Shown: piece by piece, positions 36,191 to 58,929 of the stretch
Layout: each line of letters opens with the position of its first letter
Numbering within the stretch: the first letter of the stretch is position 1
NCBI RefSeq assembly: GCF_054482525.1
Contig: NZ_CM137006.1
DNA length: 64,000 nucleotides
Strand: one strand, 5' to 3'
Translations under genes and position numbers: made by a program
The notes under the pieces: model-generated
The model's input: only the letters and a program-made list of their open reading frames with translations
What the model was told of the DNA's origin: nothing
The model's database searches: none

Positions 36191-36225
36191 CCGGATGCGA
36201 AAACTCGCATCCGGCAATAGCGCAA

Positions 36226-37611: not shown

Positions 37612-37784
37612 CGAAGATTCCGTTTAGACATGTGTGGGTAATTGAGTTGCGTATAATACCCATATTTCCCGCGCGAATCAGCATACATTGCGTGATGATC
37701 CGATCGTGCGGTTATGCTATAACACCACCCTATATATGACCCGAACCGGGTTGAAGCACCAATCAAACGGAACAGGATGCAAAA

Positions 37785-38279
37785 ATGGTTACTTTCCACA
37801 CCAATCACGGCGATATTGTCATCAAAACTTTTGACGATAAAGCACCTGAAACAGTTAAAAACTTCCTGGACTACTGCCGCGAAGGTTTTTACAACAACAC
37901 CATTTTCCACCGTGTTATCAACGGCTTTATGATTCAGGGCGGCGGTTTTGAACCGGGCATGAAACAAAAAGCCACCAAAGACCCGATCAAAAACGAAGCC
38001 AACAACGGTCTGAAAAATACCCGTGGTACACTGGCAATGGCCCGTACTCAGGCACCGCACTCTGCAACTGCACAGTTCTTCATCAACGTGGTTGATAACG
38101 ACTTCCTGAACTTCTCTGGCGAAAGCCTGCAAGGTTGGGGTTACTGCGTGTTTGCTGAAGTGGTTGAAGGCATGGACGTGGTAGACAAAATCAAAGGTGT
38201 TGCAACCGGTCGTAGCGGTATGCACCAGGACGTGCCAAAAGAAGACGTTATCATTGAAAGCGTGACCGTTAGCGAGTAA
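37785..38279 (+). CDS. ppiB: Peptidyl-prolyl cis-trans isomerase B (cyclophilin) PpiB
   Basis: 164-aa [30 protein letters not shown]... Confidence 0.95.
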
Positions 38280-38281
38280 TC

Positions 38282-39004
38282 GTGGCGACACTCTTTATTG
38301 CAGATCTTCATCTCTGCGCGGAAGAACCGGCGATCACCGCCGGTTTTCTGCGTTTTTTAGCGGGGGAAGCCTGCAAGGCCGACGCGCTGTATATTCTTGG
38401 CGATCTGTTTGAAGCGTGGATTGGCGACGACGATCCCAACCCACTCCATCGCCAGATGGCGGCAGCGATCAAAGCGGTGTCCGATTCCGGCGTTCCCTGT
38501 TATTTCATTCATGGCAACCGTGATTTTCTGCTCGGCAAACGCTTTGCCCGTGAAAGCGGCATGACGTTATTGCCGGAAGAAAAGGTGCTCGAACTGTATG
38601 GTCGCCGGGTGTTGATTATGCATGGCGACACGCTGTGCACCGATGACGCCGGTTATCAGGCTTTTCGCGCCAAAGTCCACAAACCCTGGCTGCAAACGCT
38701 ATTCCTCGCCCTGCCGTTGTTTGTGCGCAAACGCATTGCCGCGCGAATGCGAGCGAACAGCAAAGAAGCCAACAGCAGTAAATCGCTGGCGATCATGGAC
38801 GTTAACCAAAACGCGGTGGTCAGTGCGATGGAAAAACATCAGGTGCAATGGCTGATCCACGGGCATACCCATCGCCCGGCGGTGCATGAACTTATCGCCA
38901 ATCAGCAACCTGCTTTTCGCGTGGTACTCGGTGCCTGGCATACGGAAGGTTCAATGGTGAAAGTCACGGCAGATGACGTTGAGCTGATTCATTTTCCGTT
39001 TTAA
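38282..39004 (+). CDS. lpxH: UDP-2,3-diacylglucosamine hydrolase LpxH
   Basis: 240-aa ORF (GTG start) with metallophosphoesterase motifs (DLHL, GDLFE, GNRD). Confidence 0.92.
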
Positions 39005-39033
39005 ATACCCGCAACTTTGCTGATTTCACAGCC

Positions 39034-39049
39034 ACGCAACCGTTTTCCT
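39034..39049. promoter_or_regulatory. Candidate PurR operator upstream of purEK
   Basis: acgcaaccgttttcct resembles the PurR box consensus ACGCAAACGTTTGCGT. Confidence 0.5.
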
Positions 39050-39120
39050 TGCTCTCTTTCCGTGCTATTCTCTGTGCCCTCTAAAGCCGAGAGTTGTGCA
39101 CCACAGGAGTTTTAAGACGC

Positions 39121-39630
39121 ATGTCTTCCCGCAATAATCCGGCGCGTGTCGCCATCGTGATGGGGTCCAAAAGCGACTGGGCTACCATGCAGTTCGCCGC
39201 CGAAATCTTCGAAATCCTGAATGTCCCACACCACGTTGAAGTGGTTTCTGCTCACCGCACCCCCGATAAACTGTTCAGCTTCGCCGAAAGTGCCGAAGAA
39301 AACGGTTATCAGGTGATTATTGCGGGCGCAGGCGGCGCAGCGCACCTGCCTGGCATGATTGCCGCCAAAACGCTGGTGCCAGTGCTGGGCGTGCCAGTAC
39401 AGAGCGCCGCACTGAGCGGTGTCGATAGCCTCTACTCCATCGTACAAATGCCGCGTGGCATTCCGGTGGGTACACTGGCGATTGGTAAAGCTGGCGCGGC
39501 AAACGCGGCGTTACTGGCAGCACAAATTCTTGCAACTCATGATAAAGAGCTACACCAGCGTCTGAATGACTGGCGCAAAGCCCAGACTGACGAAGTGCTG
39601 GAAAACCCGGACCCGCGAGGTGCGGCATGA
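39121..39630 (+). CDS. purE: N5-carboxyaminoimidazole ribonucleotide mutase PurE
   Basis: 169 codons from [20 protein letters not shown]. Confidence 0.95.
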
Positions 39631-40694
39631 AACAGGTTTGCGTCCTCGGTAACGGGCAGTTAGGCCGTATGCTGCGTCAGGCAGGCGAACCGTTAGGCAT
39701 TGCTGTCTGGCCGGTCGGACTGGACGCTGAACCGGCGGCGGTGCCTTTTCAACAAAGCGTGATTACCGCTGAGATCGAACGCTGGCCGGAAACCGCATTA
39801 ACCCGCGAGCTGGCGCGCCATCCGGCCTTTGTGAACCGCGATGTATTCCCGATTATTGCTGACCGTCTGACTCAGAAGCAGCTTTTCGACAAGCTTCACC
39901 TGCCGACCGCACCGTGGCAGTTACTTGCCGATCGCAGCGAGTGGCCTGCGGTGTTTGATCGTTTAGGTGAGCTGGCGATTGTTAAGCGTCGCACTGGTGG
40001 CTATGACGGACGCGGTCAATGGCGTTTACGCGCCGATGAAACCGAACAGTTACCGGCTGAATGCTACGGCGAATGTATTGTCGAGCAGGGCATAAACTTC
40101 TCTGGCGAAGTGTCGCTGGTTGGCGCGCGCGGCTTTGATGGTAGCACCGTGTTTTATCCGCTGACGCATAACCTGCATCAGAACGGTATTTTGCGTACCA
40201 GCGTCGCTTTCCCGCAGGCCAATGCGCAGCAGCAAGCGCAAGCCGAAGAGATGCTGTCGGCGATTATGCAGGAGCTGGGCTATGTGGGCGTGATGGCGAT
40301 GGAGTGCTTTGTCACCCCGCAAGGTCTGCTGATCAACGAACTGGCTCCGCGTGTGCATAACAGTGGTCACTGGACGCAAAACGGTGCCAGCATCAGCCAG
40401 TTTGAGCTGCATCTGCGGGCGATTACCGATCTGCCGTTACCGCAACCAGTAGTGAATAGTCCGTCGGTGATGATCAACCTGATTGGTAGCGATCTGAATT
40501 ATGACTGGCTGAAACTGCCGCTGGTGCATCTGCACTGGTACGACAAAGAAGTCCGTCCGGGGCGTAAAGTGGGGCATCTGAATTTGACCGACAGCGACAC
40601 ATCGCGTCTGACCGCGACGCTGGAAGCCTTAATCCCGCTGCTGCCGCCGGAGTATGCCAGCGGCGTGATTTGGGCGCAGAGTAAGTTCAGTTAA
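39627..40694 (+). CDS. purK: N5-carboxyaminoimidazole ribonucleotide synthase PurK
   Basis: 355-aa ATP-grasp ORF overlapping the purE stop. Confidence 0.95.
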
Positions 40695-40722
40695 CCTGGT
40701 GCTCATTTGATTGCCGGATGCG

Positions 40723-40792
40723 GCGTGAACGCCTTATCCGACCTGTGGAAACAGTGATATTTCCAGGTCGGATAATCAGCATCGCATCAGGC
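40723..40792. repeat. REP pair (BIME) downstream of purK
   Basis: gccggatgcggcgtgaacgccttatccg ... cggataatcagcatcgcatcaggc. Confidence 0.7.
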
Positions 40793-40813
40793 ACAAATAC
40801 CGAATGCCTACGA

Positions 40814-41707
40814 CTACAGCGAAATACAGGTCCCCGCTTCGCCCGCCAGCGTCTCTTCAATCCGCGATAACGCCCCAATCCACGCGGGTTTACCACGGCT
40901 TCTGACATAGCCACTCACCGCCATTACCTTCGGCCCCATCGAACCATCGGCTTTGGCAAATGGCGCTAAATCATCCGGTGTGGCACGGCGAATGGCGCGT
41001 TGCTGCGGCGTTCCCCAGTTTTCATATACCGCATCAGCATCGGTGAGGATCACCAGCCCATCGGCGTTAATCTGCTCAGCGAGCAACGCAGCGGCGAGAT
41101 CTTTATCAATCACCGCTTCACTCCCTGCCCCATCTTCCGTCACAGGCACACCGCCGCCGCCACTGCAAATCACCACATGCCCCTCTTTGAGCAACAACTC
41201 GATGGCTTCACTGTCGAGAATTTTACGTGGTTGCGGAGACGCCACCACCCGGCGTAAATATTTACCATCACGTTTCATCTGCCAGCCGTAAGCCGCTTCC
41301 AGTGCCTTTTGTTCTCCTGGCTGATAAACCGGACCGATAAACTTCTCTGGCTGCAAAAACGCCGGATCATCAGGCGAAACTTCAATGCGCGTCAGCACTG
41401 TCGTGACAGGCGGCATCTGCGGCTGTGCGCTCAAGCTCTGCGCCAGCATATAGCCAATCATCCCCTGGCTTTCCGCCACCAGCACATCCAGCGGATACGG
41501 TTCTACCTCTTTCCACGCCAGATTCTGTAACGCCAGCAGCCCCACCTGTGGCCCGTTGCCGTGAACAATCGCCAGCCGATAAGAACGGGCCAGGCGCGCC
41601 AGCGCGGGTACAGCACTGGCAATATTGCGATATTGATTTTCTGCCGTCAGCGCCTCACCGCGCTGGAGTAAGGCGTTGCCCCCAAGAGCCACAACCAGTG
41701 TTTTCAT
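40814..41707 (-). CDS. ybcF: Carbamate kinase-like protein YbcF
   Basis: 297-aa [23 protein letters not shown]... (amino-acid kinase fold). Confidence 0.88.
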
Positions 41708-42519
41708 GGTTTTCCTTGTAATAATTGTTGGCCAAGCCAGAACCCCAGCAGCGTATCGGCCCCTGATGTATGCCCCAGCGCCAGCAGCGAATCAATCGCA
41801 ACAGCGGTACGTTTCGGGCAACTCAGAGCATGAACAAAGTGCAGGAGTGGCGAGGCGAAATATCCTTGCGCGGCATAACGTAAATAATTAACGCTCACCG
41901 CTGTGGTAACGAGTTGAAGATTGTCGGAACAGGCAAAAAACGGGCGACCGGAGCGCGCATCTAAAGCGCCATAATACCAGGCCGCCAGCAGCATTCCGCT
42001 CAGCGTGTCATCATGACTCGGCGTTAATCCCGGACCTTTGCCCAGCCAGTGCCGCCAGTCGGTCTTCACGCCATTGAGCGTGGCCTGAAAACAGTGGCGA
42101 AACTGGCGTAATTCAGCAGGAAGCGGATCGCCTGCCGCCAACGCCAGTGGCCCGAAAAGCCCGGTTTCCTCCGCGCGTTGCATCCATGCCGCTGCAAGCG
42201 GTTGAGGATGCGCAGGCGGCGTAATACGCAGCAAACAATAACGCTGTGGCTGTTTAACCGTGAAACGCCCGAGGCGAATCCCTTGAGCCACAACCTGTGG
42301 TCGTTCATTGCCGCATAATCCACCGCATAACGCATCGAATTGCGCGCGGCGAAGCACCCATCCTCCGGGGCCGAAACCACTACCCTGACGATGCAGCGTT
42401 AACAGTTCGCCGCTTTCCGTCATCAGGTTAATCGCCCGTCGCCACACGCCCGCTAACCGCCAGGACTGGCAATAATTCGGTGCGCTACGGCTGGCAAGCA
42501 GAGGATGGATGATCGTCAT
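41704..42519 (-). CDS. ylbF: Uncharacterised protein YlbF (DUF2877)
   Basis: About 271 codons from [16 protein letters not shown]; the track ORF extends upstream to 42612. Confidence 0.8.
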
Positions 42520-42529
42520 TGCGCGTTCC

Positions 42530-43789
42530 TCAACCAATCCCCATGCTTTCAGCCAGTGCTTCCAGCGCCTGTTCAAAGCAGGCCAACGATGCCCGCACAG
42601 TGCCTGCGCCAATCTGCCCGATCCCCGCCTCTTTATGGGCGATTCCGGTATTGATGAGCGGCGTAATGCCGGTTTCTACCACGCGACGAATGTCCAGTCC
42701 CAGGCACGCGCCCTGAAAATCCCAGCCTGGGATCTGCAACTGCATATTGCGTTCAAGGTAAATTTCCGCCATCTCTTCAGATACCGCTCTGGCCGCTTCC
42801 ATGCCACCCGCACCGACAAAGCGCGTTACGCCAGGCGCTGCGATCATTGCCGCTCCGCCAATACCAAAGGTTTCGGTAATTGCGCTATCGCCCATATCCG
42901 GGTTCGCCTGCTCCTGCGAGAAGCCGGTGAAAAACAGACCTTGGGGAGTGTTTACAGGCGCAGTAAACCAGCGTTCGCCCAGCCCGCTGACCCGAATCCC
43001 GAACATATTGCCGTTGCGGGTCATTGCCGTGACGATGCTGCCTGCACGGATCATCGCACCAGCATCCATCGCCGCCTTACAGTAAGCCATCGCGAGGTTA
43101 AGGAAGAACTGATCGGTCACGCTGAGGAAATCCATCACTTCCGCGATGTGCTGTTTATCATGATCGAGGCGAGCAATTTGTGGGGCCAGCGCACGCATTA
43201 ACAGTGCTGAGGAAGCAATATTGCGTTGATGGAACTCATCGCCCATGGTAATGCCCTGCGCCATCATTGCCGTGAGATCGATACCGCGCTCCATGCGCCC
43301 CAGCGCCGCGCTTAATACTGGCATTAACACATCGCGCATCCAGCGATGGCGAGTCAGGACATCTTCGCCGTAAGCGCCAAAACGCATCACTTTGCCGATA
43401 CCTTCGTTGAGGTTGCAGTACGCCCGGTTGCCGTCGGTCACGTTCTCGACCACCAGCATCGGCATACTGGCAGAAGTAATACCGCCCATTGGCCCGACGG
43501 CATTCACATGGTGACAAGGAATGAAGTTCACTTCCCCCTGCTCCAGTATTGCCAGCGCCTGCGCTTCATCTTTCGCCCAGCCTTCGAACAGACATGCGCC
43601 CACGCACGCCCCTTTCATGGGTCCGGTCATCTCCTGCCAGCGCATTGGCGGCCCGGCGTGAAGCAGTGTTTTGCCCTCGTTTAGTTCGCTGATAAGTGAA
43701 GAAGCCGGTTGCACATCCAGCCAGTGTGGACGAGCGCGACGAATTTGTTCGATAACCGTAGCATTGGCTTGCGCCACTGATGTAAACAT
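42530..43789 (-). CDS. ylbE: YlbE (DUF1116), intact 419-aa form
   Basis: Single uninterrupted 419-aa ORF. Confidence 0.85.
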
Positions 43790-43798
43790 GGGAACCCC

Positions 43799-45466
43799 TT
43801 ATTGCAAACGTTCTAATAAACGAGCCAGTTTTTTATTGCCGCCGGCGACTGGCGACCATTGGTAATGCACAACCGGTTTGCTGGCGCTTTGTAGCTCCAG
43901 CGCAAAGCTGCGTAATCCGATGTTAATCACGGCGACGTTTTCCAGTAATGACGGTGTGTGTTGCTGAGTGGCAGGCGAAAGCGGATGAATCAGCGCCGCT
44001 GCCAGCAATGTGGCTTCCGGCAGCGAACTCACTACCGCGATCCCCGCATCTTCCAGCGTGGCGATTTGTTGCGAGCGGCATTGCGGGTCACGTTCGGTGC
44101 CTGTCACCGTGGCAATGGCGTACAGCGGTTGGCTGTCTGAACGCGCGGCACAGGCTTTTTGCCAGGCGCTCACCAGCGAGGCGGCAGGATCGGCGGTCGC
44201 GCCGAAGCCAATCACGACATCAAGTAGCAATACGCGCACTGACGGTTTAGCGCCGAGATCGGCAATTAACTGGTTGCGTAAGGTTGGGTCGATCATCGGA
44301 TGGGGACGCCCGACGGTGTAGAAATCATCGCCGAGGTCAATGATCTGGTGACCATCGGCGTCGAGCATCATACCGTGATGATGGGTATCGTCGGCTACCA
44401 TACCAAGGTGCCCGGCAAGTAATCCCGCCGCTTCGGCGGCCAGCGTACCGCCGGTATACAAGCCGCAAATAAGTCCGCTGCTGACAGGTGCTATTGCGTT
44501 ACGTCGCGCCGTAATGCGTGAAAGCAGGCAAGACAGGCGAGCGGCCTCATCCAGCGAGGAGGCAAACCAGACATTCTCGTCGCGGGCCACCGCCGGGGTA
44601 TAACCTAAAAACAGCGCCACCGTCGGTTTGCCGGTTGCTTTCATGGCATTAACAATTTTCAGACGCACAGCTTCGGCAGGTGGTTTTGAAACAAATGCCA
44701 GCACCTCGCTTTTCGCATCGGCGCTTAACATTTCCAGCGCCGTTAGCGCACTGATGCCGCCCACTTCACGGCTGAGATCGCGCCCGCCAAGACCAATCGC
44801 GTGGGTAATTCCCTCCCCTGCCAGCGCAATCTGTGAGCACAGCTCCTGAATCCCGGTACCGGAAGCGCCAATGACGCCAATGTTGCCTTCCGGCATCACG
44901 TTAGCAAAAGCCAGCGGCGTGGCGGCAATCATTGACGTACCGCAGTCCGGCCCCATCACCAGCAAGCCTTTATCGCGTGCGCGGGTTTTGAGTTGGATTT
45001 CATCTTCCAGCGTGACGTTATCGGAGAACATCATCACGTTGAGGTTGCGATCCAGCGCCTGATTCGCCAGCTCCGCCGCATATTCGCCAGCCACTGAAAT
45101 CAGCGCCAGACTGGCGTCGGGTAATTTCTGACAGGCACTGTCCCAGCGACGCACCTGCGTCAACGCCTGGCTGCTGGCTGACCCCTGCGCCAGTTGTTTT
45201 AGCGCCTCTTCAAGCTGCTGCATAATCGCCTGCGCGATCCCCGCATCCGCCGCTTCGCTACGAATTGCCACGCAAATATCGTTCGGCGTGGCGTTATTAA
45301 AATCGTCATGCCAGAAACCTGTGGTATCTAATAACGCTTTATTGGCGGGCGTACCCATCATTACGGAAACATCATCAACATTTTCTGATTCGCTGAGTTT
45401 TCGTGAAATAATCATTAAACTGACCGAATCCTGAAAACACCCTTTTTTAATAAAGGCGTGGATCAT
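43799..45466 (-). CDS. fdrA: FdrA (CoA-ligase-like / succinyl-CoA synthetase alpha-like)
   Basis: 555-aa ORF MIHAFIKKGCFQDSVSLMIISRKL... Confidence 0.88.
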   Translation of the reverse strand: MIHAFIKKGCFQDSVSLMIISRKLSESENVDDVSVMMGTPANKALLDTTGFWHDDFNNATPNDICVAIRSEAADAGIAQAIMQQLEEALKQLAQGSASSQALTQVRRWDSACQKLPDASLALISVAGEYAAELANQALDRNLNVMMFSDNVTLEDEIQLKTRARDKGLLVMGPDCGTSMIAATPLAFANVMPEGNIGVIGASGTGIQELCSQIALAGEGITHAIGLGGRDLSREVGGISALTALEMLSADAKSEVLAFVSKPPAEAVRLKIVNAMKATGKPTVALFLGYTPAVARDENVWFASSLDEAARLSCLLSRITARRNAIAPVSSGLICGLYTGGTLAAEAAGLLAGHLGMVADDTHHHGMMLDADGHQIIDLGDDFYTVGRPHPMIDPTLRNQLIADLGAKPSVRVLLLDVVIGFGATADPAASLVSAWQKACAARSDSQPLYAIATVTGTERDPQCRSQQIATLEDAGIAVVSSLPEATLLAAALIHPLSPATQQHTPSLLENVAVINIGLRSFALELQSASKPVVHYQWSPVAGGNKKLARLLERLQ

Positions 45467-45782
45467 AACAACTCCTTAAAAATTGCACCCATGGCAATTG
45501 CACGAGCAGTGTTAATGTGGCAATTACGGTATCGATGGTCGGTGACAAATAAGGTGATGAATATCACACAGAGATTATTAACAAAAGAATTCAAATAACC
45601 GCCACGCTATTACGTGTTATTTTTTAATAAGCGTGGTTGTTTTAAAAACCAGGTTAAAAGCGAGCGGATTATCAAATAAATTCTAACTATATTTTTTTGC
45701 CTGTCTGGATCACATAATCCAGATATTTTCCCTGTATGTTAATTGCAGTCATGCTTCACACCGTCGTTAAAAAGGAAGACAG

Positions 45783-46832
45783 ATGAAAATCAGTCGGGAA
45801 ACACTCCACCAGCTAATCGAGAATAAACTCTGCCAGGCTGGGTTAAAACGTGAGCACGCTGCAACCGTGGCTGAAGTATTGGTTTACGCCGATGCCAGAG
45901 GGATCCACTCTCATGGCGCGGTGCGTGTTGAATACTACGCAGAACGCATTTCAAAAGGCGGCACCAACCGTGAACCGGAATTTCGTCTTGAAGAAACCGG
46001 GCCGTGTTCGGCAATTTTACATGCCGACAATGCCGCCGGACAGGTCGCGGCGAAAATGGGTATGGAACATGCCATCAAAACCGCCCAGCAAAATGGCGTT
46101 GCGGTGGTCGGTATCAGCCGGATGGGTCACAGCGGCGCAATCTCTTATTTTGTACAGCAGGCAGCTCGCGCCGGGTTAATTGGCATTTCGATGTGCCAGT
46201 CCGATCCAATGGTGGTGCCGTTTGGCGGCGCGGAAATTTACTACGGAACTAACCCACTGGCCTTTGCCGCGCCGGGAGAAGGCGACGAGATCCTTACCTT
46301 TGATATGGCGACTACCGTACAGGCATGGGGAAAAGTGCTCGACGCCCGCTCGCGTAATATGTCTATCTCGGATACCTGGGCGGTCGATAAAAACGGAGCA
46401 CCAACAACCGATCCATTTGCAGTTAACGCCCTGCTCCCTGCCGCCGGACCGAAAGGGTATGGCCTGATGATGATGATTGACGTCCTCTCAGGCGTCTTAC
46501 TCGGCTTACCGTTCGGGCGACAGGTTAGTTCGATGTATGACGATTTACACGCCGGGCGTAATTTGGGGCAATTACATATCGTTATTAACCCGAACTTTTT
46601 CTCCTCCAGCGAACTATTCCGTCAACATCTTAGCCAGACCATGCGCGAATTAAATGCCATAACCCCCGCGCCCGGTTTTAACCAGGTTTATTATCCCGGA
46701 CAGGATCAGGATATTAAACAACGCAAAGCCGCCGTCGAAGGCATCGAAATTGTTGATGATATTTACCAGTATTTAATTTCCGACGCGCTTTATAACACGT
46801 CATACGAAACGAAAAATCCCTTTGCGCAATAA
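45783..46832 (+). CDS. allD: Ureidoglycolate dehydrogenase AllD
   Basis: 349-aa ORF, Ldh_2 family. Confidence 0.9.
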   Translation: MKISRETLHQLIENKLCQAGLKREHAATVAEVLVYADARGIHSHGAVRVEYYAERISKGGTNREPEFRLEETGPCSAILHADNAAGQVAAKMGMEHAIKTAQQNGVAVVGISRMGHSGAISYFVQQAARAGLIGISMCQSDPMVVPFGGAEIYYGTNPLAFAAPGEGDEILTFDMATTVQAWGKVLDARSRNMSISDTWAVDKNGAPTTDPFAVNALLPAAGPKGYGLMMMIDVLSGVLLGLPFGRQVSSMYDDLHAGRNLGQLHIVINPNFFSSSELFRQHLSQTMRELNAITPAPGFNQVYYPGQDQDIKQRKAAVEGIEIVDDIYQYLISDALYNTSYETKNPFAQ

Positions 46833-47155
46833 TTATTGAGACAGGACTTTCTTATGATTACACATTTTCGTCAAGCCATAGAAGAAACGCTGCCCTGGCT
46901 TTCCTCTTTTGGCGCTGACCCAACGGGTGGGATGACCCGTTTACTTTATTCGCCGGAATGGCTGGAAACTCAGCAGCAATTTAAAAAAAGAATGGCAGCA
47001 AGCGGGCTGGAAACACGTTTCGATGAAGTGGGGAATTTATATGGTCGCCTGAGTGGCACCGAATATCCACAAGAAGTGGTTCTGAGCGGTTCGCATATCG
47101 GGTGATGCTGCCAACTTACTGATTTAGTGTATGATGGTGTTTTTGAGGTGCTCCA

Positions 47156-47431
47156 GTGGCTTCTGTTTCTATCAGCTGTCCCTCCTGTTCAGCTACTGAC
47201 GGGGTGGTGCGTAACGGCAAAAGCACCGCCGGACATCAGCGCTATCTCTGCTCTCACTGCCGTAAAACATGGCAACTGCAGTTCACTTACACCGCTTCTC
47301 AACCCGGTACGCACCAGAAAATCATTGATATGGCCATGAATGGCGTTGGATGCCGGGCAACTGCCCGCATTATGGGCGTTGGCCTCAACACGATTTTACG
47401 TCACTTAAAAAACTCAGGCCGCAGTCGGTAA
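47156..47431 (+). CDS. insA: IS1 protein InsA
   Basis: 91-aa [43 protein letters not shown]... Confidence 0.93.
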
Positions 47432-47853
47432 CCTCGCGCATACAGCCGGGCAGTGACGTCATCGTCTGCGCGGAAATGGACGAACAGTGGGGCTATGTCG
47501 GGGCTAAATCGCGCCAGCGCTGGCTGTTTTACGCGTATGACAGTCTCCGGAAGACGGTTGTTGCGCACGTATTCGGTGAACGCACTATGGCGACGCTGGG
47601 GCGTCTTATGAGCCTGCTGTCACCCTTTGACGTGGTGATATGGATGACGGATGGCTGGCCGCTGTATGAATCCCGCCTGAAGGGAAAGCTGCACGTAATC
47701 AGCAAGCGATATACGCAGCGAATTGAGCGGCATAACCTGAATCTGAGGCAGCACCTGGCACGGCTGGGACGGAAGTCGCTGTCGTTCTCAAAATCGGTGG
47801 AGCTGCATGACAAAGTCATCGGGCATTATCTGAACATAAAACACTATCAATAA
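47350..47853 (+). CDS. insB: IS1 InsB reading frame (expressed as InsAB-prime by -1 frameshifting)
   Basis: 167-aa ORF in the -1 frame overlapping the insA 3-prime end. Confidence 0.88.
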
Positions 47854-48876
47854 GTTGGAGTCATTACCCGCATATCGATACCGTGGTTAACGGCGGTAAC
47901 CTCGACGGGCAATTCGGCGCGCTGGCGGCGTGGCTGGCAATTGACTGGTTGAAAACGCAATACGGCGCGCCGTTACGTACGGTCGAAGTGGTGGCGATGG
48001 CAGAAGAAGAAGGCAGCCGCTTCCCGTATGTCTTCTGGGGCAGTAAAAATATCTTTGGGCTGGCGAATCCTGACGACGTGCGGAATATCTGTGATGCCAA
48101 AGGAAATAGTTTTGTCGATGCGATGAAGGCTTGCGGATTTACTCTGCCGAACGCCCCACTAACTCCGCGTCAGGATATTAAAGCCTTTGTCGAACTGCAT
48201 ATCGAACAGGGCTGTGTGCTGGAAAGTAATGGGCAGTCAATTGGCGTGGTGAATGCAATTGTCGGGCAGCGTCGTTATACGGTGACGCTGAATGGCGAAT
48301 CAAACCATGCAGGCACCACGCCGATGGGTTATCGTCGTGATACGGTTTACGCTTTCAGTCGCATTTGCCATCAGTCGATCGAAAAAGCGAAAAAGATGGG
48401 CGACCCGCTGGTGCTGACCTTTGGCAAGGTGGAGCCGCGCCCGAATACGGTGAATGTGGTACCGGGTAAAACCACGTTCACCATTGATTGTCGTCATACC
48501 AACGCTGCCGTGCTGCGCGATTTCACCCAGCAGTTAGAAAACGACATGCGGGCGATTTGCGATGAAATGGACATTGGTATTGATATCGATTTATGGATGG
48601 ACGAAGAACCCGTGCCGATGAATAAGGACCTGGTCGCCACCCTGACAGAATTGTGTGAAAGAGAAAAACTGAATTACCGGGTGATGCACAGTGGTGCCGG
48701 GCACGACGCGCAAATTTTCGCGCCTCGCGTACCAACCTGCATGATTTTTATCCCCAGCATCAACGGGATCAGCCATAACCCGGCGGAACGCACCAATATT
48801 ACCGACCTTGCCGAAGGGGTCAAAACGTTGGCACTCATGCTTTATCAACTTGCCTGGCAGAAATAAGGAGTCATAA

Positions 48877-49662
48877 ATGGGATATTTAAATAACGTCACC
48901 GGTTACCGCGATGATTTACTGGCTAACCGTGCGATTGTTAAACACGGTAATTTCGCACTGTTAACCCCGGATGGTCTGGTAAAAAATATTATTCCGGGCT
49001 TTGAAAATTGTGACGCGACAATCCTCTCCACGCCAAAGCTGGGGGCCTCTTTTGTTGATTATCTGGTCACACTGCATCAAAACGGTGGCAACCAACAGGG
49101 CTTCGGTGGCGAAGGCATTGAAACGTTCCTGTATGTGATCTCTGGAAATATCACTGCCAAAGCCGAAGGCAAAACATTTGCCTTAAGCGAAGGTGGCTAT
49201 CTTTATTGCCCACCAGGCTCCTTAATGACGTTTGTTAACGCCCAGGCCGAAGACAGCCAAATCTTTTTATATAAGCGCCGCTATGTTCCGGTAGAAGGCC
49301 ATGCACCGTGGCTGGTTTCTGGCAATGCCAGCGAACTGGAACGCATTCACTATGAAGGTATGGATGATGTGATCCTGCTGGATTTTCTGCCCAAAGAGTT
49401 AGGTTTTGATATGAACATGCATATCCTCTCTTTTGCACCAGGTGCCAGCCACGGTTATATCGAAACACACGTCCAGGAACACGGTGCCTATATTCTTTCC
49501 GGTCAGGGGGTTTATAACCTCGACAATAACTGGATCCCGGTGAAAAAAGGCGATTACATCTTTATGGGCGCTTATTCTTTACAGGCTGGTTATGGCGTAG
49601 GGCGTGGTGAAGCGTTCAGCTATATTTACTCGAAAGATTGCAACCGCGACGTAGAGATTTAA
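48877..49662 (+). CDS. allE: (S)-ureidoglycine aminohydrolase AllE (YlbA), cupin
   Basis: 261-aa ORF MGYLNNVTGYRDDLLANRAIVKHGNF... Confidence 0.88.
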   Translation: MGYLNNVTGYRDDLLANRAIVKHGNFALLTPDGLVKNIIPGFENCDATILSTPKLGASFVDYLVTLHQNGGNQQGFGGEGIETFLYVISGNITAKAEGKTFALSEGGYLYCPPGSLMTFVNAQAEDSQIFLYKRRYVPVEGHAPWLVSGNASELERIHYEGMDDVILLDFLPKELGFDMNMHILSFAPGASHGYIETHVQEHGAYILSGQGVYNLDNNWIPVKKGDYIFMGAYSLQAGYGVGRGEAFSYIYSKDCNRDVEI

Positions 49663-49704
49663 GTCATACCACTCGCCTGATTATTTTTAGCTATGTTGGA
49701 TTTT

Positions 49705-49731
49705 GCCACGGTTTATACCGTGGCTTTTTTT
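49705..49731 (+). terminator. Rho-independent terminator after allE
   Basis: Stem gccacgg / ccgtggc followed by a T-run. Confidence 0.7.
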
Positions 49732-49791
49732 GCGGTAAATTCAGGTAAAAAACGGATGCGGGATAAAATGCATCCACTCTAATGGCAAGAG

Positions 49792-50937
49792 TCAGTTTTT
49801 AATTCCCTGACCTATTTTAATGGCGCAGGCAATATTTCGTGCGCTGTTGAAGAGATTGGTTTCACCGCTGGCGAGCACTTCGGCTAAAGGTGCCAGACGT
49901 GGCAAAATGCTGAACACCGCATCAATGCCGTACTGGTGCACCACTTCCACGCCATCACCCAATACGCCAGCAATCCCAATCACCGGGACATTAAACTGCT
50001 TCGCCACCGACGCCACGCCCAGCGGCGCTTTACCGCCTGCCGTTTGCGAGTCGATGCGCCCTTCCCCGGTGATCACCAGTGCTGCGCCCTGCACTGCCTG
50101 CGCAAGATTGACCGCATTCAACACAATCTCAATACCCGGTTTAATATCCGCATTGAGAAATACCGCCGCCGCAATACCCATCCCGCCCGCCGCGCCGCCG
50201 CCCGCCATCTGGCAGACATTAATTTCAGTTTGCTGTTGTAAAACACGGGCGTAATTTTGCAGCCCCTGTTCCAGCTCTTCGACCATTTCCGGCGTTGCCC
50301 CTTTTTGCGGGCCAAACACCGCCGCCGCGCCGCGTGCCCCTACCAGCGGGTTATCAACGTCACATGCTACTTCAATATGGCAGTTCGCCAGACGCGGATC
50401 GCATTCCTCCATCTCAATGCTTGCCACGCGCGCTAAATTGCCGCCGTTAGCCGCCAGCACCTGGCCGTCGGCATCGAGAAAACGCACACCAAGCGCCTGC
50501 GCCATGCCCATACCGCCGTCGACCGTCGCACTGCCGCCAATGCCGAGAATAATATGGCGAATGTCGTTATCCAGCGCATGCCGAATTAACTCCCCCGTAC
50601 CAAAACTGGAGGCCAGCAACGGATTACGCTTTTCAGGCGCGACCAGCATCAGGCCACTTGCTGCCGCCATCTCAATCACCGCTGTTTTCCCGTCGCCGGT
50701 AAGGCCATAAAAAGCATTCACTTTTTCGCCCATCGGCCCGCAGACTTCAAGCGTCACGATGTTACCACCCGTCGCGGCGACCATCGCATCCACCGTCCCT
50801 TCGCCGCCATCCGCTATCGGCAAACAGATATAGTTCGCATCGGGAAAGAGGGTCGAAAACCCGGCTTTAATTGCCTGACAACATTTTTCTGCACTTAAGC
50901 TCTCTTTAAAAGAGTCTGGCGCAATGACAATCTTCAT
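49792..50937 (-). CDS. glxK: Glycerate 2-kinase GlxK
   Basis: 381 codons from [20 protein letters not shown]. Confidence 0.9.
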
Positions 50938-50958
50938 TATCAATCCTTTTTCAACAAA

Positions 50959-52260
50959 TTATTCGATGCGTTCCCACGGAATAAGGTTATCCATAAGAAC
51001 AGCCAGTAAAATCCCGACCAATAAGCCGTTACTGAGCAGAGGACGAAGCGTTAATGGAAGGTCTTGCAGATACACAGGCGGTAATGCCATTAAAAATATG
51101 CCGACAAATAACGGCAATGCGAGTCGATAAATATTGCGAGCGGTAAACGTTATTTGCTGGCTAAACACCAGCGCCGAAAAGAGTAAAGGCAGATAAGAAA
51201 CCAGCATAACCGCGCTACTCACGGGTAAAGGGATACTGCAAAACAGTCGTGTGAGTGCCGGAACCAGTGCCACCAGCAGGCAAATAACGCTGCCATAAAT
51301 AAACGAACGCCGCGTGTAATCGCCAGTCTGGGTTAATAAACCAATGGATGAAACAAACGGTGAAAATGGAATTACCGCCAGCGGTACGGTTATCAGCGTC
51401 ATAAATCCGGTCGCCACAAAGCTACGACGATAACGCGTATTCCCCGCGCCCTGCTGCGGATAAAAAACATCCGTGCCCCGAATCGCACCGTAGGTATTGC
51501 TGATATTTACCAGACCTGTAATCACCGCCGTCAGAATAATCCCCGGCGACAAAGCACCGCCACTGCCGAGCGGGAACCACTGCCAGTGCAACTCACCGGA
51601 GAGCGAATGCGAAGAAGGAAAGCAAAAGTACCACAACAACCAGCCGGTTATGGTACCGACCAGCAGGCCATAACGGGCAAAACGTTGCGGCAGAAAGATA
51701 ATCATCGCCAGTACCAGGCACATCACCGCGACCGAGAGCGCGAACGGCGGTAACTGAATTTTAAAATTCGGGTCGGCTATGCCAAACGGCAGCCCGAGCA
51801 TACCTTTGAAAAAGATAGTGGTCAGCTGCGCGCCCAGCATCAACATAAACAAGACCATCACCGACGGCGTAAATAACCGTGCCAGACGATGACCTAATCC
51901 GCTAAAACCAATCAACATCGTCAACACGCCAGAGAGCGCAATTCCCACCGCCAGGCTGGTAGCGATATCGTTGATCGGTGTCCCGCGCGATGCTTCGCCA
52001 AGGGTGATAGTAAGGATGGTTCCCCACCACAGGCCGCCTGGCCCTTCCATAATAGCGCGACGATGACCGCAGAACGCCTGAGCGAAGCAGGCCAGTGCGG
52101 TAGCAAGAAAAGCATATTGCGTGAGCGTAAGCAGGCTACTTTGCGGCAACTGAAAAGCAGAAAGTAGCGTAGGAGGAACCACAACAGTGTTGCAAAAAAT
52201 AAAGAAAAACCACTGAAATCCTGATAACAGGCTTTCGCGGCTGACTGCAAAATTGAACAT
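50959..52260 (-). CDS. ybbY: Putative purine/nucleobase permease YbbY (NCS2 family)
   Basis: About 433-aa multi-TM ORF in the allantoin cluster. Confidence 0.85.
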   Translation of the reverse strand: MFNFAVSRESLLSGFQWFFFIFCNTVVVPPTLLSAFQLPQSSLLTLTQYAFLATALACFAQAFCGHRRAIMEGPGGLWWGTILTITLGEASRGTPINDIATSLAVGIALSGVLTMLIGFSGLGHRLARLFTPSVMVLFMLMLGAQLTTIFFKGMLGLPFGIADPNFKIQLPPFALSVAVMCLVLAMIIFLPQRFARYGLLVGTITGWLLWYFCFPSSHSLSGELHWQWFPLGSGGALSPGIILTAVITGLVNISNTYGAIRGTDVFYPQQGAGNTRYRRSFVATGFMTLITVPLAVIPFSPFVSSIGLLTQTGDYTRRSFIYGSVICLLVALVPALTRLFCSIPLPVSSAVMLVSYLPLLFSALVFSQQITFTARNIYRLALPLFVGIFLMALPPVYLQDLPLTLRPLLSNGLLVGILLAVLMDNLIPWERIE

Positions 52261-52316
52261 AAACACACCTTAACCGGAGAATGCCCGCCGCAAGGACGGG
52301 CATTGCAGGGGCCAGA

Positions 52317-53678
52317 TTACTGCTGATGTTTAAGGATAAATTGACCTTTCGGCGCAACAGGGAAGCCCTGTTCAATGTCGTAAATCACATCACCACGTAA
52401 GATGGTTTTCGTGATACGCGCGCCAATGGTACGGCCAACATACGGGCTGACTTTGTGGCGATATTCCAGATCGTCATTGGTAAGAACATAGCTGCTATTC
52501 GGCTGAATGAAGACGAAGTCGGCATCTTTTCCTGGGGCGATACGGCCTTTTTGCTGCAGACCGAAAATATCTGCTGCGTTAGTCGCCATTAATTTGCCGA
52601 ACATTGGCAGAGACATTCCGCGTTTCTGTACCGCTTCATCGAACATCACGTCCATACAGTTTTGCAGACCGGCAATACCGCCCCATGCTTCCATGATGTT
52701 GCCGGCTTTCATTTCCGGAGGGCATGGTGAGTGGTCGGAAACCAGGCAGTCGATTTCACCGTTAAATAGTTTTTCCCACATGCCTTTCTGGTTTTCCAGA
52801 TCGCGGATCGGCGGTGAACACTTCGCCAGAGTACCGATTTCTTCGAACTGATCGGTATCCAGTACAAAGTAATGCGGGCAGGATTCACAGGTAACATCCT
52901 GGCCTTCCTGACGTGCACGAGTCACTTCCTCAACACCTTCCGGGCTGCTGATATGGCAAACGTGCAGACGGCAACCAGCAACTTTCGCCAGGTACAGCAC
53001 GCGGCGAATCGCTTCCACTTCGGTAAATACCGGACGCGAAGCCACATAGTCATGTGCGGTTACGCGACCTTCACTTTTCGCTTCTTCGCCCAGTGCATCA
53101 CAGATCAGCGCGTTTTCGCAGTGAACCAGCACCGGCTGCCCCAGTTCGCCCAGCTTCTGCGCACCTTTGAAGAACTGCCAGTCGTTTACATCACGGAAGT
53201 CGTTGTCGATACCGCGATCGCCACAGGTCGCAACGAAGCATTTGAAGCCGACAACGCCCACTTCATCCAGCTCATGCAGACGGTCGATGTTGTAAGACAC
53301 CAGGCCACCGAGTTGTGCCGCATCGATAGTCAGCTTGCCTTTGGCGGCATCAAACTTCAGTTCAATCGATGCGCGGTCAACCGTTGCAGGCAGCTGGTTG
53401 AGCGGCATTTCGATCATGGTGGTGATACCGCCTTTTGCCGCTGCGCGAGTGCCAGTTTCATAACCTTCCCAGTGGCTACGACCCGGTTCAGAAATATGGG
53501 TGTGCGCATCAACCATGCCCGGCGAAACCACCAGACCAGACGCATCCATCACTTCTTTTGCATCACCCAGATCCTGACCGATAGCAGCAATTTTCCCGCC
53601 TTTAACGGCGATATCTACAACGCGAGCTTCGTTTTCTAAAATAACGGTGCCGTTTTTAATGATTAAATCAAAAGACAT
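52317..53678 (-). CDS. allB: Allantoinase AllB
   Basis: 453-aa amidohydrolase [37 protein letters not shown]... Confidence 0.93.
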
Positions 53679-53737
53679 AACAAACTCCTTGTAAAATACA
53701 GATTGGTTTTTAACTCAATGTTCAATATCGGGATTAA

Positions 53738-55192
53738 TTAACCTATGGTTTTTTGCTCTCCTGTTTTTTCTGCTGTTGTACGTTTCTTTAATAAGGCGTA
53801 GGCCGCAAAGGCGACGATGACGCCGACAAACCATGAAACACGAGATAACGGTTCCATAAAGGGAATAAACTTACCGCCAAGAGATAAAATAACGGCCACC
53901 AGAGTTACTGAAAACGCAGTGAGGTTAAAACCGTTATCGTAATATTTATAATCGCCAGGTGCGGTGTACAGTTCATCAAGATTAATTTGCCCACGCATCA
54001 CCACAAAATAATGCGCCATCATGACACCAATTACCGGACCCAGCATCCCGCCGATAATATCGAGGAACAGATAAATACTGTCCTGATTTTCCATTAATTT
54101 CCACGGGCAGATCACCAGGCTGATAATACTGGCAATCAGTACGCCGTTTTTATAGGTCAGTTTCGTCGGTGCAATAGCGGCAATCTGATAACCGGCCGGA
54201 ATAATATTACCGGTGGCGTTAGTGGAAATGGTCGTCATCAGAATAACCAGTACCGCAAAGAACGAGGCAAACAGGCTGTCCCAACGCTGAACAATATCCA
54301 GCACGTTCCAGGTGTCAGCGCCGTAATGAATACTGGCTCCGGCAATAATACATACCCCCGCGACCGCAAACAGAATATAGGCCACAACTAAACCCAGCGT
54401 TTGCCCCAGCGCTTGCTCACGAAACGAGTGGGCGTTTTGCGTAAAGTCGGATGCGCTCACCGCCGGTGCCGCCCAGACCGCAACTACCGCGTTAATCACC
54501 ACCAGGAACAGGAAGCCACTGTTTTCTGCTTTCTGAATACCGCTCGGAATGTAGTCAAAGATTGGACCAAGCCCGACCAGCGAAATCGCCCAAATCGCCA
54601 TACCGCCGAAAACGATATAGATGCACGGGTTAAGAATGGCGGTGAATTTATTTAAAACTTTGCCACCGCCGAAACCGATTCCGACGTTCACCAGCCAGAA
54701 GAGTAAGAAAGTGATTAAGCCCGGTAGAGAAAGCCCTAACAGGGTAAAATCACCACCGAGAGTTAAAAATCCCGGCCAGATTTTGCCAATCAGGATCAAG
54801 CAGGCCAGCGATCCAGCGTAACATTGCAGGCCAAACCACATAATGGCAGCAATCCCGCCTCTTAATAATCCGGGAAACAGTGCACCACGTACGCCGTAAG
54901 AAGCACGCAGGATCATGGCAAAAGGCACACCGTATTTACTGCCCGCAGCACCGTTTAATACCATTACCGCGGCAATGAAAAAGGCGCTGAGGATAATTGC
55001 CAGCATAATACTAAAGGTAGACAAGCCGAGAATAAAAAAGCCGCCGACCATCACATAATTGGGAACGTTATGAACCGAACCCATCCATAAGGTAAAATAG
55101 TTAAATGTTTTCCAGGTCCGCTGGCTTTGCGTTTTCGGCAATAGATCTTCGCTATAGCCGCGTTGCTGGAATAGTTTTCTCTGATGTTCCAT
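53738..55192 (-). CDS. ybbW: Allantoin permease YbbW (AllW), NCS1 family
   Basis: 484-aa multi-TM ORF. Confidence 0.9.
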   Translation of the reverse strand: MEHQRKLFQQRGYSEDLLPKTQSQRTWKTFNYFTLWMGSVHNVPNYVMVGGFFILGLSTFSIMLAIILSAFFIAAVMVLNGAAGSKYGVPFAMILRASYGVRGALFPGLLRGGIAAIMWFGLQCYAGSLACLILIGKIWPGFLTLGGDFTLLGLSLPGLITFLLFWLVNVGIGFGGGKVLNKFTAILNPCIYIVFGGMAIWAISLVGLGPIFDYIPSGIQKAENSGFLFLVVINAVVAVWAAPAVSASDFTQNAHSFREQALGQTLGLVVAYILFAVAGVCIIAGASIHYGADTWNVLDIVQRWDSLFASFFAVLVILMTTISTNATGNIIPAGYQIAAIAPTKLTYKNGVLIASIISLVICPWKLMENQDSIYLFLDIIGGMLGPVIGVMMAHYFVVMRGQINLDELYTAPGDYKYYDNGFNLTAFSVTLVAVILSLGGKFIPFMEPLSRVSWFVGVIVAFAAYALLKKRTTAEKTGEQKTIG

Positions 55193-55361
55193 AAATCCCT
55201 CTTAATTTCACGTATCGAATAACGTCTTTTTAATCTAGCTATGAGGAACAAATAAAATAAAAATATTATTTTTAATACTGAAGCAACATCTTTGGCTGCT
55301 TTCTTTTTTTAATATTGCTGGCCGATTCATTTTCTGATATCGGCCATTTTTATTGCGGGTA

Positions 55362-56240
55362 TCAGGCCAGTTTATGGTTAGCCATTAATTCCAGCGCCTG
55401 CACTAACGCAGAGTGATCCAACTGGCTACCACCGTTTGCCGCACAGGTATTAAACAATTCCTGGCAGGTCGCGGTGTTTGGCAGATTCAGCGCCAGTGCT
55501 TTCGCACTTTGCAGTGCCAGGTTGAGATCTTTCTGGTGCAGCGCAATTTTAAAACCTGGATTAAAGGTGCGTTTAATCATGCGCTCACCGTGAACTTCCA
55601 GAATACGTGAGGAAGCAAAGCCGCCCATCAGCGCCTGGCGCACACGTACCGGGTCCGCACCGGCTTTTGAAGCAAATAGCAGGGCTTCAGAAACCGCTTC
55701 AATATTGAGCGCCACAATAATCTGATTTGCCACTTTGCAGGTTTGACCGTCGCCGTTACCGCCGACGAGGGTGATATTTTTACCGAGCAGTTCAAACAGC
55801 GGTTTAACACGTTCAAATACCGCTTCATCACCGCCAACCATAATCGACAACGTCCCTTCACGCGCACCGATTTCACCGCCGGAGACTGGCGCATCGAGAT
55901 AATCGCCGCCCAGTTCATTCACCTGACGAGCGAAACGCTTAGTTTCAATCGGGGAAATGGAGCTCATATCAACAATGGTTTTGCCCTTCAGCGAGGCTTT
56001 GGTACAACCATTTTCACCAAACAGAACTTCTTCAACCTGTGGTGTGTCCGGCACCATAATAAAAATGATGTCCGCTGCTTCCGTTACCTGGCGCGCAGTT
56101 TCAACACTGACGGCACCCAGTGACAGTAATTCATCAGCAACCGGACCAATGGTTGTGACATGCAGTTGATGACCGGCTCGCGCCAGATTAATGGCCATCG
56201 GTGTACCCATAATGCCTAAGCCAATAAATCCCAGTTTCAT
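55362..56240 (-). CDS. glxR: Tartronate semialdehyde reductase GlxR
   Basis: 292-aa ORF with NAD-binding GxGxxG N-terminus (MKLGFIGLGIMG). Confidence 0.92.
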   Translation of the reverse strand: MKLGFIGLGIMGTPMAINLARAGHQLHVTTIGPVADELLSLGAVSVETARQVTEAADIIFIMVPDTPQVEEVLFGENGCTKASLKGKTIVDMSSISPIETKRFARQVNELGGDYLDAPVSGGEIGAREGTLSIMVGGDEAVFERVKPLFELLGKNITLVGGNGDGQTCKVANQIIVALNIEAVSEALLFASKAGADPVRVRQALMGGFASSRILEVHGERMIKRTFNPGFKIALHQKDLNLALQSAKALALNLPNTATCQELFNTCAANGGSQLDHSALVQALELMANHKLA

Positions 56241-56339
56241 AATTAACCTCTTTTAAATTTCGCTTTTCCTGAATTCAGACAACACGATCCCCTGCCAACT
56301 TAGCGGCCTAAAAAAGCATTGTCTGAATAGCGTTACGTT

Positions 56340-57116
56340 TTAACGGTACGGATCCATCCAGCCTAAACCAGCTTCCGTGGTGGTTTGGGGTTTATATTCA
56401 CAGCCAACCCAACCGTTGTAGTCAGAATTTTCAATTACCGTAAAGAGATATTCGTAATTAATTTCTCCGGTTCCCGGTTCGCCGCGATGCGGATTATCGG
56501 CAATTTGCAGGTGACCAATTTTATCGGCCCATTGAGTCATAGTGTTGGTTAATTCACCTTCCATCCGCTGCATATGATAAATGTCATACTGAATTTTCAA
56601 ATTGCAGCAACCGACATCATCAATCAGTTTCAGCGCCTGCCGAGTTCCGGTGAGATGGAAACCAGGAATATCAAAATGGTTGATAGGTTCAATCAGTAAT
56701 AAAATATCTTCTTTCATCAGCATATTCGCGGCATAACGCAGGTTTTCTACAAGCGTTGCGTGAATCTGTTCACTGCTGAAACCAGCCGGCGTTTTACCGA
56801 CCAGACAGTTAATTTTTTTATTACCCAGCGCACGGGCATAACGAATCGCTGCTGCTACGCCATCCCGAAACTCTTCTTCACGGCCAGGAATACAGGCAAT
56901 ACCGCGCTCCCCCGCCGCCCAGTCACCCGCCGGTAAATTGTGCAGCGTATGTTCGAGTTTATTACTCACCAGTACCTGTTTTAATTCTTCAATGTCGTAG
57001 TCATAAGGGAACATAAATTCAACACCGCGAAAACCACACTGCGCAGCTTTCTCAAAACGGGCGAGAAAATCATATTCACCAAATAACATCGATAAATTAG
57101 CAGAGAAACGTAACAT
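56340..57116 (-). CDS. hyi: Hydroxypyruvate isomerase Hyi
   Basis: 258-aa ORF MLRFSANLSMLFGEYDFLARFEKAAQCGF... Confidence 0.92.
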   Translation of the reverse strand: MLRFSANLSMLFGEYDFLARFEKAAQCGFRGVEFMFPYDYDIEELKQVLVSNKLEHTLHNLPAGDWAAGERGIACIPGREEEFRDGVAAAIRYARALGNKKINCLVGKTPAGFSSEQIHATLVENLRYAANMLMKEDILLLIEPINHFDIPGFHLTGTRQALKLIDDVGCCNLKIQYDIYHMQRMEGELTNTMTQWADKIGHLQIADNPHRGEPGTGEINYEYLFTVIENSDYNGWVGCEYKPQTTTEAGLGWMDPYR

Positions 57117-57128
57117 TATTTATCTCCC

Positions 57129-58910
57129 TTATTCATAGTGCATGAAGCAGGTTTCAGTCGGTGCGTCCACTGCGTTATCGGCGATATCTTCAAATTCCAT
57201 GACGTTATCCAGTTCGCTGCCCATCGAAATATTGGTCACACGCTCGAGAATAACTTCCACGACTACCGGTACCCGATATTGCGCCATTAAGGCTTTCGCC
57301 TGTTCAAAGGCTGGTGCAATATCTTCCGGTTTGAAGACCCGAATCGCTTTACAACCTAAACCTTCCGCTACTTTTACGTGGTCGACGCCGTAACCGTTCA
57401 CTTCACTGGAGTTAATATTTTCGAACGCGAGCTGTACGCAGTAATCCATATCAAACGCGCGCTGCGACTGGCGAATCAGCCCCAGATAGGCGTTATTGAC
57501 CAGTACATGGATGTACGGAATGTTGAACTGTGCGCCAACGGCCAATTCTTCAATCAGGAACTGAAAGTCGAAGTCACCGGAAATCGCCACCACTTTGCGC
57601 TCTGGATCAGCGGCACACACGCCCAGCGCCGCCGGAATGGTCCAGCCCAACGGGCCTGCCTGCCCACAGTTGATCCAGTGGCGGTCTTTAAAGACATGCA
57701 GCATTTGTGCCGCAGCGATTTGTGACAGACCAATGGTGGTGACATAACAAACATCGCGACCAAAGGCTTTGTTCATCTCTTCATACACGCGCTGCGGTTT
57801 CACCGGCACGTTGTCGAAGTGGGTTTTGCGCAGCAAAGTGCGTTTGCGCTGCTGGCAGTCGGCGACCCATTCTTTACGACACGGCAGACGACCCGCTTTT
57901 TGCATCTCCTGCGCCACTTCAACCAGCAGTGTCAGCGCCGCTTTAGCATCAGAGACAATGCCGAGATCCGGACACAGCACGCGGCCAATTTGCGTCGGCT
58001 CAATATCGATATGAACGATTTTGCGCCCTTCGGTGTATTTCTCTACCGAACCGGTATGACGGTTCGCAAAACGGTTACCGATACCAAACACCATGTCGGA
58101 CGCCAGTAGCGTTGCGTTACCGTAACGATGTGCGGTTTGCAGACCCACCATCCCGGCCATCAGTTCATGATCGTCCGGGATACAGCCCCAGCCCATCAGC
58201 GTTGGGATCACCGGAACGCTGGTCAGTTCAGCAAACTGTTGTAACAGTGCAGCTGCGTCAGCATTGATTACCCCGCCCCCGGCAACAATCACCGGACGTT
58301 CGGCCTGGATTAACATTTCTACCGCTTTTTCGATCTGCATACGGCTGGCAGCAGGTTTGTAGACCGGCAGCGGTTCGTACATGTCAGGATCAAACTCGAT
58401 TTCCGCAACCTGAACGTCGAACGGTAAATCCACCAATACCGGACCCGGACGACCAGAACGCATCAGGTGAAATGCCTGTTGCAGCACGCGAGGCACCAGC
58501 GCCGCTTCACGAACTGTAACCGCCATTTTGCTGACCGGTTTAGCAATTGCTTCAATATCTACGGCCTGAAAATCTTCTTTATGCAGACGGGCGCGCGGTG
58601 CCTGGCCGGTAATGCACAGAATAGGAATGGAATCAGCAGAAGCGGAATAGAGCGCGGTGATCATGTCCGTGCCCGCAGGACCGGAAGTCCCCAGACATAC
58701 GCCGATATTCCCTGCCGTTGCGCGGGTATAACCTTCCGCCATGTGCGAAGCACCTTCCACATGACGCGCCAGAATGTGACGAATACCGCCGTGCTTACGC
58801 ATCGCTGAGTAGAACGGATTGATTGCAGCTCCCGGAACGCCGAAGGCGGTGGTGATACCTTCTTTCTCCAGCACATACATTGCCGCGTCAACGGCTCTCA
58901 TTTTTGCCAT
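57129..58910 (-). CDS. gcl: Glyoxylate carboligase Gcl (TPP enzyme)
   Basis: 593 codons from [27 protein letters not shown]; the track ORF extends upstream to 59000. Confidence 0.93.
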
Positions 58911-58929
58911 TTTATTCCTACCTCTATTA

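Follow-up and report, generated by a model that had tools for sequence, protein, structure and literature searches.

The allantoate amidohydrolase gene allC of the source strain is a pseudogene, interrupted at codon 83 by a complete IS1 at a 9-bp site that appears to be a hot spot for this element. The insertion lies in a stretch of 64,000 nucleotides (assembly GCF_054482525.1, contig NZ_CM137006.1), referred to here as the window. In our reading, a canonical IS1 of the IS1A/consensus type would have moved into allC of an Escherichia coli strain very close to PCN033, duplicating the 9-bp target CGCATATCG and splitting the enzyme at codon 83, so that both fragments would be inactive. Placed between the allD promoter and allE, the element would also bring allE expression down. 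The step from allantoate to (S)-ureidoglycine would then be blocked, and anaerobic growth on allantoin nitrogen lost. The site would have been chosen by the target preference of IS1, the knockout of a dispensable pathway being neutral or mildly deleterious and not selected. We consider it very probable that this account holds as a whole, that is, an IS1 knockout of allC at an intrinsic hot spot, with a pathway block, driven by target preference. In kind, the event is an ordinary, routine IS1 knockout of a dispensable catabolic gene, to which the hot spot adds something small but concrete.

The IS1 element and the split allC gene

The features of the interrupted operon are, in order along the window:

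45783-46832, + strand: allD (ureidoglycolate dehydrogenase), intact, first gene of the allD-allC-allE operon
46854-47100, + strand: allC 5′ fragment, nt 1-247 (codons 1-82 and the first base of codon 83)
47092-47100, no strand: target-site duplication, left copy, 9 bp, CGCATATCG, allC nt 239-247
47101-47868, + strand: IS1, 768 bp, same direction of transcription as allC
47101-47123, + strand: IS1 left inverted repeat (IRL), GGTGATGCTGCCAACTTACTGAT
47156-47431, + strand: insA, 91 aa, identical to K-12 InsA
47350-47853, + strand: insB frame, open, 167 codons, DDE catalytic part of InsAB′
47407-47413, + strand: A6C (AAAAAAC) programmed -1 frameshift motif, joining insA to the insB frame
47846-47868, - strand: IS1 right inverted repeat (IRR), GGTAATGACTCCAACTTATTGAT on the minus strand
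47869-47877, no strand: target-site duplication, right copy, 9 bp, CGCATATCG
47878-48866, + strand: allC 3′ fragment, nt 248-1236
48877-49662, + strand: allE ((S)-ureidoglycine aminohydrolase), intact sequence, last gene of the operon, now downstream of IS1

The boundaries of the element and both copies of the repeat were obtained by direct reading and by a script, which agree and give exactly 768 bp; the interval 47092-47877 comprises the element together with both repeats in full. The two ends match at 18 of their first 23 positions, forming imperfect inverted repeats of about 23 bp, and they start with GGT(G/A)ATG. InsAB′, modelled through the -1 frameshift, is a protein of 232 aa that scores 243 bits against the NCBIfam IS1 transposase model NF033558 (cut-off 100), with a match over the full model length, and it also matches the Pfam families Zn_ribbon_InsA, HTH_Tnp_IS1 and DDE_Tnp_IS1, the last covered at positions 1-131 of 131. 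The element therefore has all the sequence-visible defining traits of the IS1 family, and the complete 768-bp IS1 with intact insA and insB described in the first-pass annotation is borne out by direct reading, script and frameshift model alike.

The element is one nucleotide apart from K-12 IS1A (IS1 position 262, silent in insA), and many annotated IS1A copies in E. coli chromosomes and plasmids match it at 100% identity over the 768 bp. It is apparently able to transpose, as judged from its intact ends and transposase. With IS1A and IS1E of K-12, the source of nearly all IS1 transposition in that strain (PMC12428005), it shares the length of 768 bp, the inverted repeats, InsA, the A6C site (described in PMC12428005), InsAB′ and the 9-bp target duplication; it differs from them in chromosomal location, as no K-12 reference copy lies in allC.

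The 5′ frame of allC enters IS1 and ends at the TGA at 47103-47105, which gives an 83-aa product ending in LSGSHI plus a glycine. This fragment covers positions 1-82 of the allantoate deiminase model NF006768. The frame of allC is not continuous, with 777 extra bases after nt 247, and deletion in silico of 47101-47877 (IS1 and one repeat) restores an open reading frame of 1236 nt and 411 aa without a stop, in agreement with the earlier claim that allC is broken after LSGSHI. The reconstructed gene and K-12 allC are 29 nt and 6 aa apart. The product of the reconstructed gene, identical to that of PCN033, reaches 831 bits with NF006768, where the cut-off is 532, and 765 bits with TIGR03176, where it is 598, and aligns end to end (1-411) with PDB 1Z2L (E = 3e-284), which together with 2IMO represents the solved E. 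coli allantoate amidohydrolase. The Pfam Peptidase_M20 domain of AllC begins at residue 79, and the cut at codon 83 falls within the conserved SGSHID motif, at the very start of the M20 catalytic domain. In M20 amidohydrolases, the conserved SGSH-I-D motif bears a metal ligand.

An assembly artefact, in which a multicopy IS1 was misplaced into an intact allC, has to be considered, given that IS1 copies are frequent places of breaks and false joins in short-read assemblies and that the draft assemblies carrying the allele all end inside IS1. A mis-join would not, however, yield a perfect 9-bp duplication whose removal restores the reading frame exactly, and the same junctions are present in the independent finished genomes NCTC9967 and 1008S19. 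We regard an artefact as extremely improbable, and take the insertion as real.

The gene lies between allD and allE, in the same gene order as in K-12 and PCN033. The rest of the cluster had been described as intact, and a comparison of each gene with the PCN033 annotation confirmed this: allS, allA, allR, gcl, hyi, glxR, allW/ybbW, allB, ybbY, glxK, allE and allD are without internal stops, and each cluster protein is identical to, or one residue apart from, the annotated PCN033 protein. The genes fdrA-ylbE-ylbF-ybcF (allFGHK) are likewise without internal stops, and their products too are at most one residue apart from those of PCN033. Their intactness, the probable reduction of allE expression and the recurrent IS1 hot spot are additions to what the first-pass annotation had reported.

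Expected consequences for allantoin use

AllC converts allantoate to ureidoglycine as the second enzyme of allantoin breakdown, and the allD-allC-allE operon is expressed only anaerobically, under activation by AllS (PMC12535856). AllC activity should be lost in the source strain, with the enzyme split at residue 82/83, and neither fragment should be active because the split falls at the beginning of the M20 metallohydrolase domain. The pathway is expected to stop at the conversion of allantoate to (S)-ureidoglycine, without anaerobic growth on allantoin nitrogen, in line with the prediction of the first-pass annotation.

The insertion would be phenotypically silent if the 3′ fragment were expressed by read-through from IS1 and active, or if a substitute enzyme were present. 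The longest open reading frame in the 3′ fragment starts at GTG 47883 and encodes 327 aa, lacking the first 84 residues; it retains positions 86-411 of NF006768 and on its own still scores 659 bits, over the cut-off for allantoate deiminase. The element is co-oriented with allC, so that read-through transcription is conceivable, and the sequence covers only 64 kb of the genome, so that another allantoate-degrading enzyme could, formally, be encoded beyond the window, be it on the chromosome or a plasmid. Against this, the residues missing from the 3′ product include the start of the Peptidase_M20 domain, and a promoter scan of IS1 predicted no promoter facing outward from its right end toward the allC 3′ fragment and allE. 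The only promoter-like match inside the element is at 47108-47135, in IRL, where the insA promoter is expected. E. coli is not known to have a second allantoate amidohydrolase. A ΔallC strain has been employed to prevent allantoate catabolism (PMC10163214). A silent insertion is thus very unlikely, and we retain the reading in which AllC activity is lost. Since the score of the 3′ fragment exceeds the NCBIfam cut-off, automatic annotation might nevertheless label this fragment allC.

The expression of allE is probably lowered as well. IS1 insertions are classically polar, and here the element separates allE from the allD promoter, with no outward promoter at its right end. Some allE expression could persist if transcripts from the allD or insA promoters read through the element. 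For the source strain, these changes would mean the loss of anaerobic allantoin nitrogen use and, by analogy with ΔallC K-12 cells, which recover more slowly after long nitrogen starvation (PMC7417836), a slower recovery from such starvation.

Recurrent insertion at the 9-bp target

The empty site is preserved in PCN033, the closely related genome used for comparison, where allC is uninterrupted and the sequence reads ...GGTTCGCATATCGATACC... without break. The two alignment blocks of PCN033 with the window overlap by exactly 9 bp, which corresponds to the duplication; the 9-bp repeat noted in the first-pass annotation is thus present on both sides of IS1 and in single copy in PCN033. The flanks are more than 99.98% identical to PCN033 over 36 kb, with three mismatches in 20,000 bases on the left (window 27101-47100) and one in 16,132 bases on the right (window 47869-64000), that is, four SNPs. 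The IS-free 9.1-kb stretch beside the insertion (window 47878-57000) is 100% identical to PCN033 and to ten other complete genomes. From these near-identical flanks and the empty site, we infer a recent insertion, confined to the lineage of the window. The junction in + orientation was absent in one piece from the 5,426 complete RefSeq E. coli genomes, and a + orientation allC::IS1 junction on a PCN033-like background was likewise found in 0 of these 5,426. A 30-nt junction pattern, searched in both orientations, had no match in species-representative genomes or JGI metagenome contigs, which is expected because assemblies break at IS copies.

The four SNPs are all nonsynonymous: 28302 (fimZ G190R), 42589 (ylbE/allG P401S), 46368 (allD P196S) and 61090 (allS E162D). 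The allD change is private to the window in comparison with PCN033, K-12 and three other assemblies, and the window strain carries the derived state for both allD P196S and fimZ G190R, while at allS E162D the window carries the K-12 base. Three of the four lie in all-genes, and relaxed constraint on the allantoin genes was considered, but the bias is not significant, since about half of the 36 kb under comparison consists of all-genes and PCN033 has the derived state for at least one change.

The same target is occupied by IS1 in other strains. In NCTC9967 and 1008S19, IS1 is at the identical position with the same duplication CGCATATCG, in the opposite orientation; their elements are 38 nt and 2 nt apart from that of the window, respectively, and 37 nt apart from each other. 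In SC516, the right junction matches that of the window, and an IS1-bounded deletion reaches fdrA. Close by, ES3 has an IS1 insertion 5 bp upstream of the 9-bp target, and in the FORC_031/ETEC lineage the right junction of IS1 is 27 bp upstream of the target, with a deletion.

Further carriers were sought with the exact sequence of the truncated AllC product, since either orientation of IS1 yields an end in SHIG followed by a stop. The product of the window allele was found in three further contigs, all with IS1 in + orientation, in which the 3.2 kb upstream differs from the window at 102-114 positions. For the K-12 allele, 48 blocks of the collection list the product; among the ten such places that we examined, IS1 occurs in both orientations and in a third variant. 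Beyond NCTC9967, 1008S19 and SC516, nine further assemblies or read sets carry IS1 at the target, some of them with an engineered, tetR-bearing element in genomes of about 4.0 Mb, and the backgrounds of these other carriers show 15-40 differences in 1300 bp of flank. The alleles of NCTC9967, 1008S19, SC516 and the draft and metagenome assemblies thus share with the window the insertion point, the 9-bp duplication CGCATATCG, the length of the truncated product and its SHIG end, whereas they differ in host background, several in orientation, and in IS1 variant, by up to 38 nt. Flank haplotype, orientation and IS1 variant define distinct combinations; with each counted as one event, at least 10 independent IS1 insertions have occurred at the identical 9 bp.

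Four assemblies of about 4.0 Mb (GCA_047154665.1, GCA_047157725.1, GCA_047158125.2 and GCA_047157565.1) have at the target the left end of IS1, about 335 bp of foreign sequence, an IS1 transposase and tetR. Judging from this structure and the genome size, they are probably MDS42 lines of an IS-activation evolution study (Kanai et al. 2025, PMC12065110), a paper that makes no mention of allC. The engineered high-activity IS1-YK2X8 of that study and its IS-free host of about 4 Mb match the four assemblies; unlike the IS1 of the window, IS1-YK2X8 is synthetic and inducible.

Repeated loss could also mean that E. coli is under positive selection to inactivate allC, with IS1 merely the mutagen most readily at hand; the recurrence would then reflect a convergent, adaptive loss of the allantoin pathway. 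In allD, allC and their neighbourhood there are indeed many independent insertions of IS1 and deletions bounded by it, and several of these events, in K-12 J53, KMi006, FORC_031 and SC516, remove large parts of the cluster. The frequency of IS1 in or near a gene was determined in the 5,426 complete E. coli genomes with chimeric queries, composed of 1236 bp of the gene plus an internal IS1 fragment in both forward and reverse-complemented form, for which 80% coverage is reached only with IS1 in or near the gene. The resulting counts are lower bounds, since no more than 40 pieces were counted per record, and NCTC9967 and 1008S19 escape this design. At least 56 genomes have IS1 in or near allC, but allC is not exceptional, with at least 41 for allB and at least 91 for sfmD, a cryptic fimbrial usher gene, whereas no genome reached the same coverage for cusA with this query design. 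With about 60,000 chromosomal IS1 places distributed uniformly, the expected number is similar to the allC count. IS1 around allC is not in excess relative to other dispensable genes, and enrichment or selection at the level of the gene was rejected after the allB, sfmD and cusA controls.

The position of the insertions also speaks against selection, which would spread them over allC instead of placing at least 10 independent events in the identical 9 bp. Other IS1 insertions in allC are scattered, at about nt 1-9, 39-47, 93, 175, 220, 358-366, 382-390, 411, 537 and 813. In addition, an engineered IS1 has hit the target in lines that seem to come from laboratory culture in rich medium (PMC12065110), and about 5,290 of the 5,426 genomes keep at least 80% of the 9.1-kb segment from allC to hyi (window 47878-57000). 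Adaptive loss is therefore an unlikely explanation. The scatter at the level of the gene, the extreme concentration at a single site and the hit by a laboratory construct instead point to target preference, and given the recurrent use of the site we read the event in the window as driven by this preference, not selected for.

These observations support the 9-bp site in allC as an intrinsic IS1 hot spot, used in both orientations and in unrelated strains. We consider it likely that CGCATATCG and its local context form a hot spot specified by sequence or structure, beyond a preference for AT-rich DNA, and hit both in nature and in the laboratory. No clear target motif is known for IS1 besides this preference (PMC5009759). 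The target region has 43-47% A+T, and the site is at the 41st percentile within allC; AT-richness is not supported as the cause, the site not being AT-rich. Nor is an IHF site supported, as no match to WATCAANNNNTTR with at most one mismatch was present nearby. At either end of the duplication there is G/C, and its ATAT core lies in a partly symmetric TCG-N5-CGA arrangement; in our own reading this symmetry, the only visible feature of the target, is a candidate determinant. The IS186 hot spots at GGGG(N6/N7)CCCC (Lee et al. 2016, PMC5009759) are similar in the repeated insertion at the same site, in either orientation and with single-nucleotide precision, but differ in having a defined motif.

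In a literature search, we found no paper naming allC together with IS1. The hot spot, if true, would offer a defined substrate for the study of target choice by the IS1 transposase, and would make the loss of allC a predictable, recurrent event in E. coli populations. It also calls for caution in comparative genomics, as strains with identical allC::IS1 alleles may have acquired them independently.

Other features of the window and of related genomes

Several losses in the allantoin region of other genomes are bordered by an IS1 in allC or allD: from allC to ybbP in K-12 J53, from allC to hyi in KMi006, and from allC back into fdrA in FORC_031 and 11 related ETEC genomes, SC516 and CUPF09. 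From their borders, these look like IS1-mediated adjacent deletions.

The window also contains two IS4-family elements of about 1.34 kb, at about 2330-3668 (- strand) and 4182-5520 (+ strand), which are inverted relative to each other, 99.7% identical and both absent from PCN033. Each encodes a 372-aa transposase, assigned by NCBIfam to the IS4 family, which we take to be InsL of IS186. The two elements sit in GGGG-ATTACT-CCCC, each beside one of two tandem hokE loci, and both sites fit the IS186 target motif GGGG(N6)CCCC (PMC5009759).

Compared with PCN033, nfrB (window 20340-22340), which encodes a c-di-GMP-activated glycosyltransferase of the phage N4 adsorption pathway, lacks 1 bp near 22175; this deletion shifts the frame and the open reading frame ends at 22340, so nfrB is probably a pseudogene in the window strain. 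Of the 57 differences from PCN033 in 22.5 kb, 55 are within the 4.7 kb at window 21554-26282 (3′ end of nfrB, nfrA and ybcH), as against four SNPs in the 36 kb to the right; from this density, the patch looks like a recombination import. Finally, an intergenic repeat of about 105 bp is present in two copies with 91.5% identity, one at 1458-1562 (fepA/entD) and the other at 63287-63391, downstream of a dinQ-like small open reading frame, and may be of the ERIC/IRU type.
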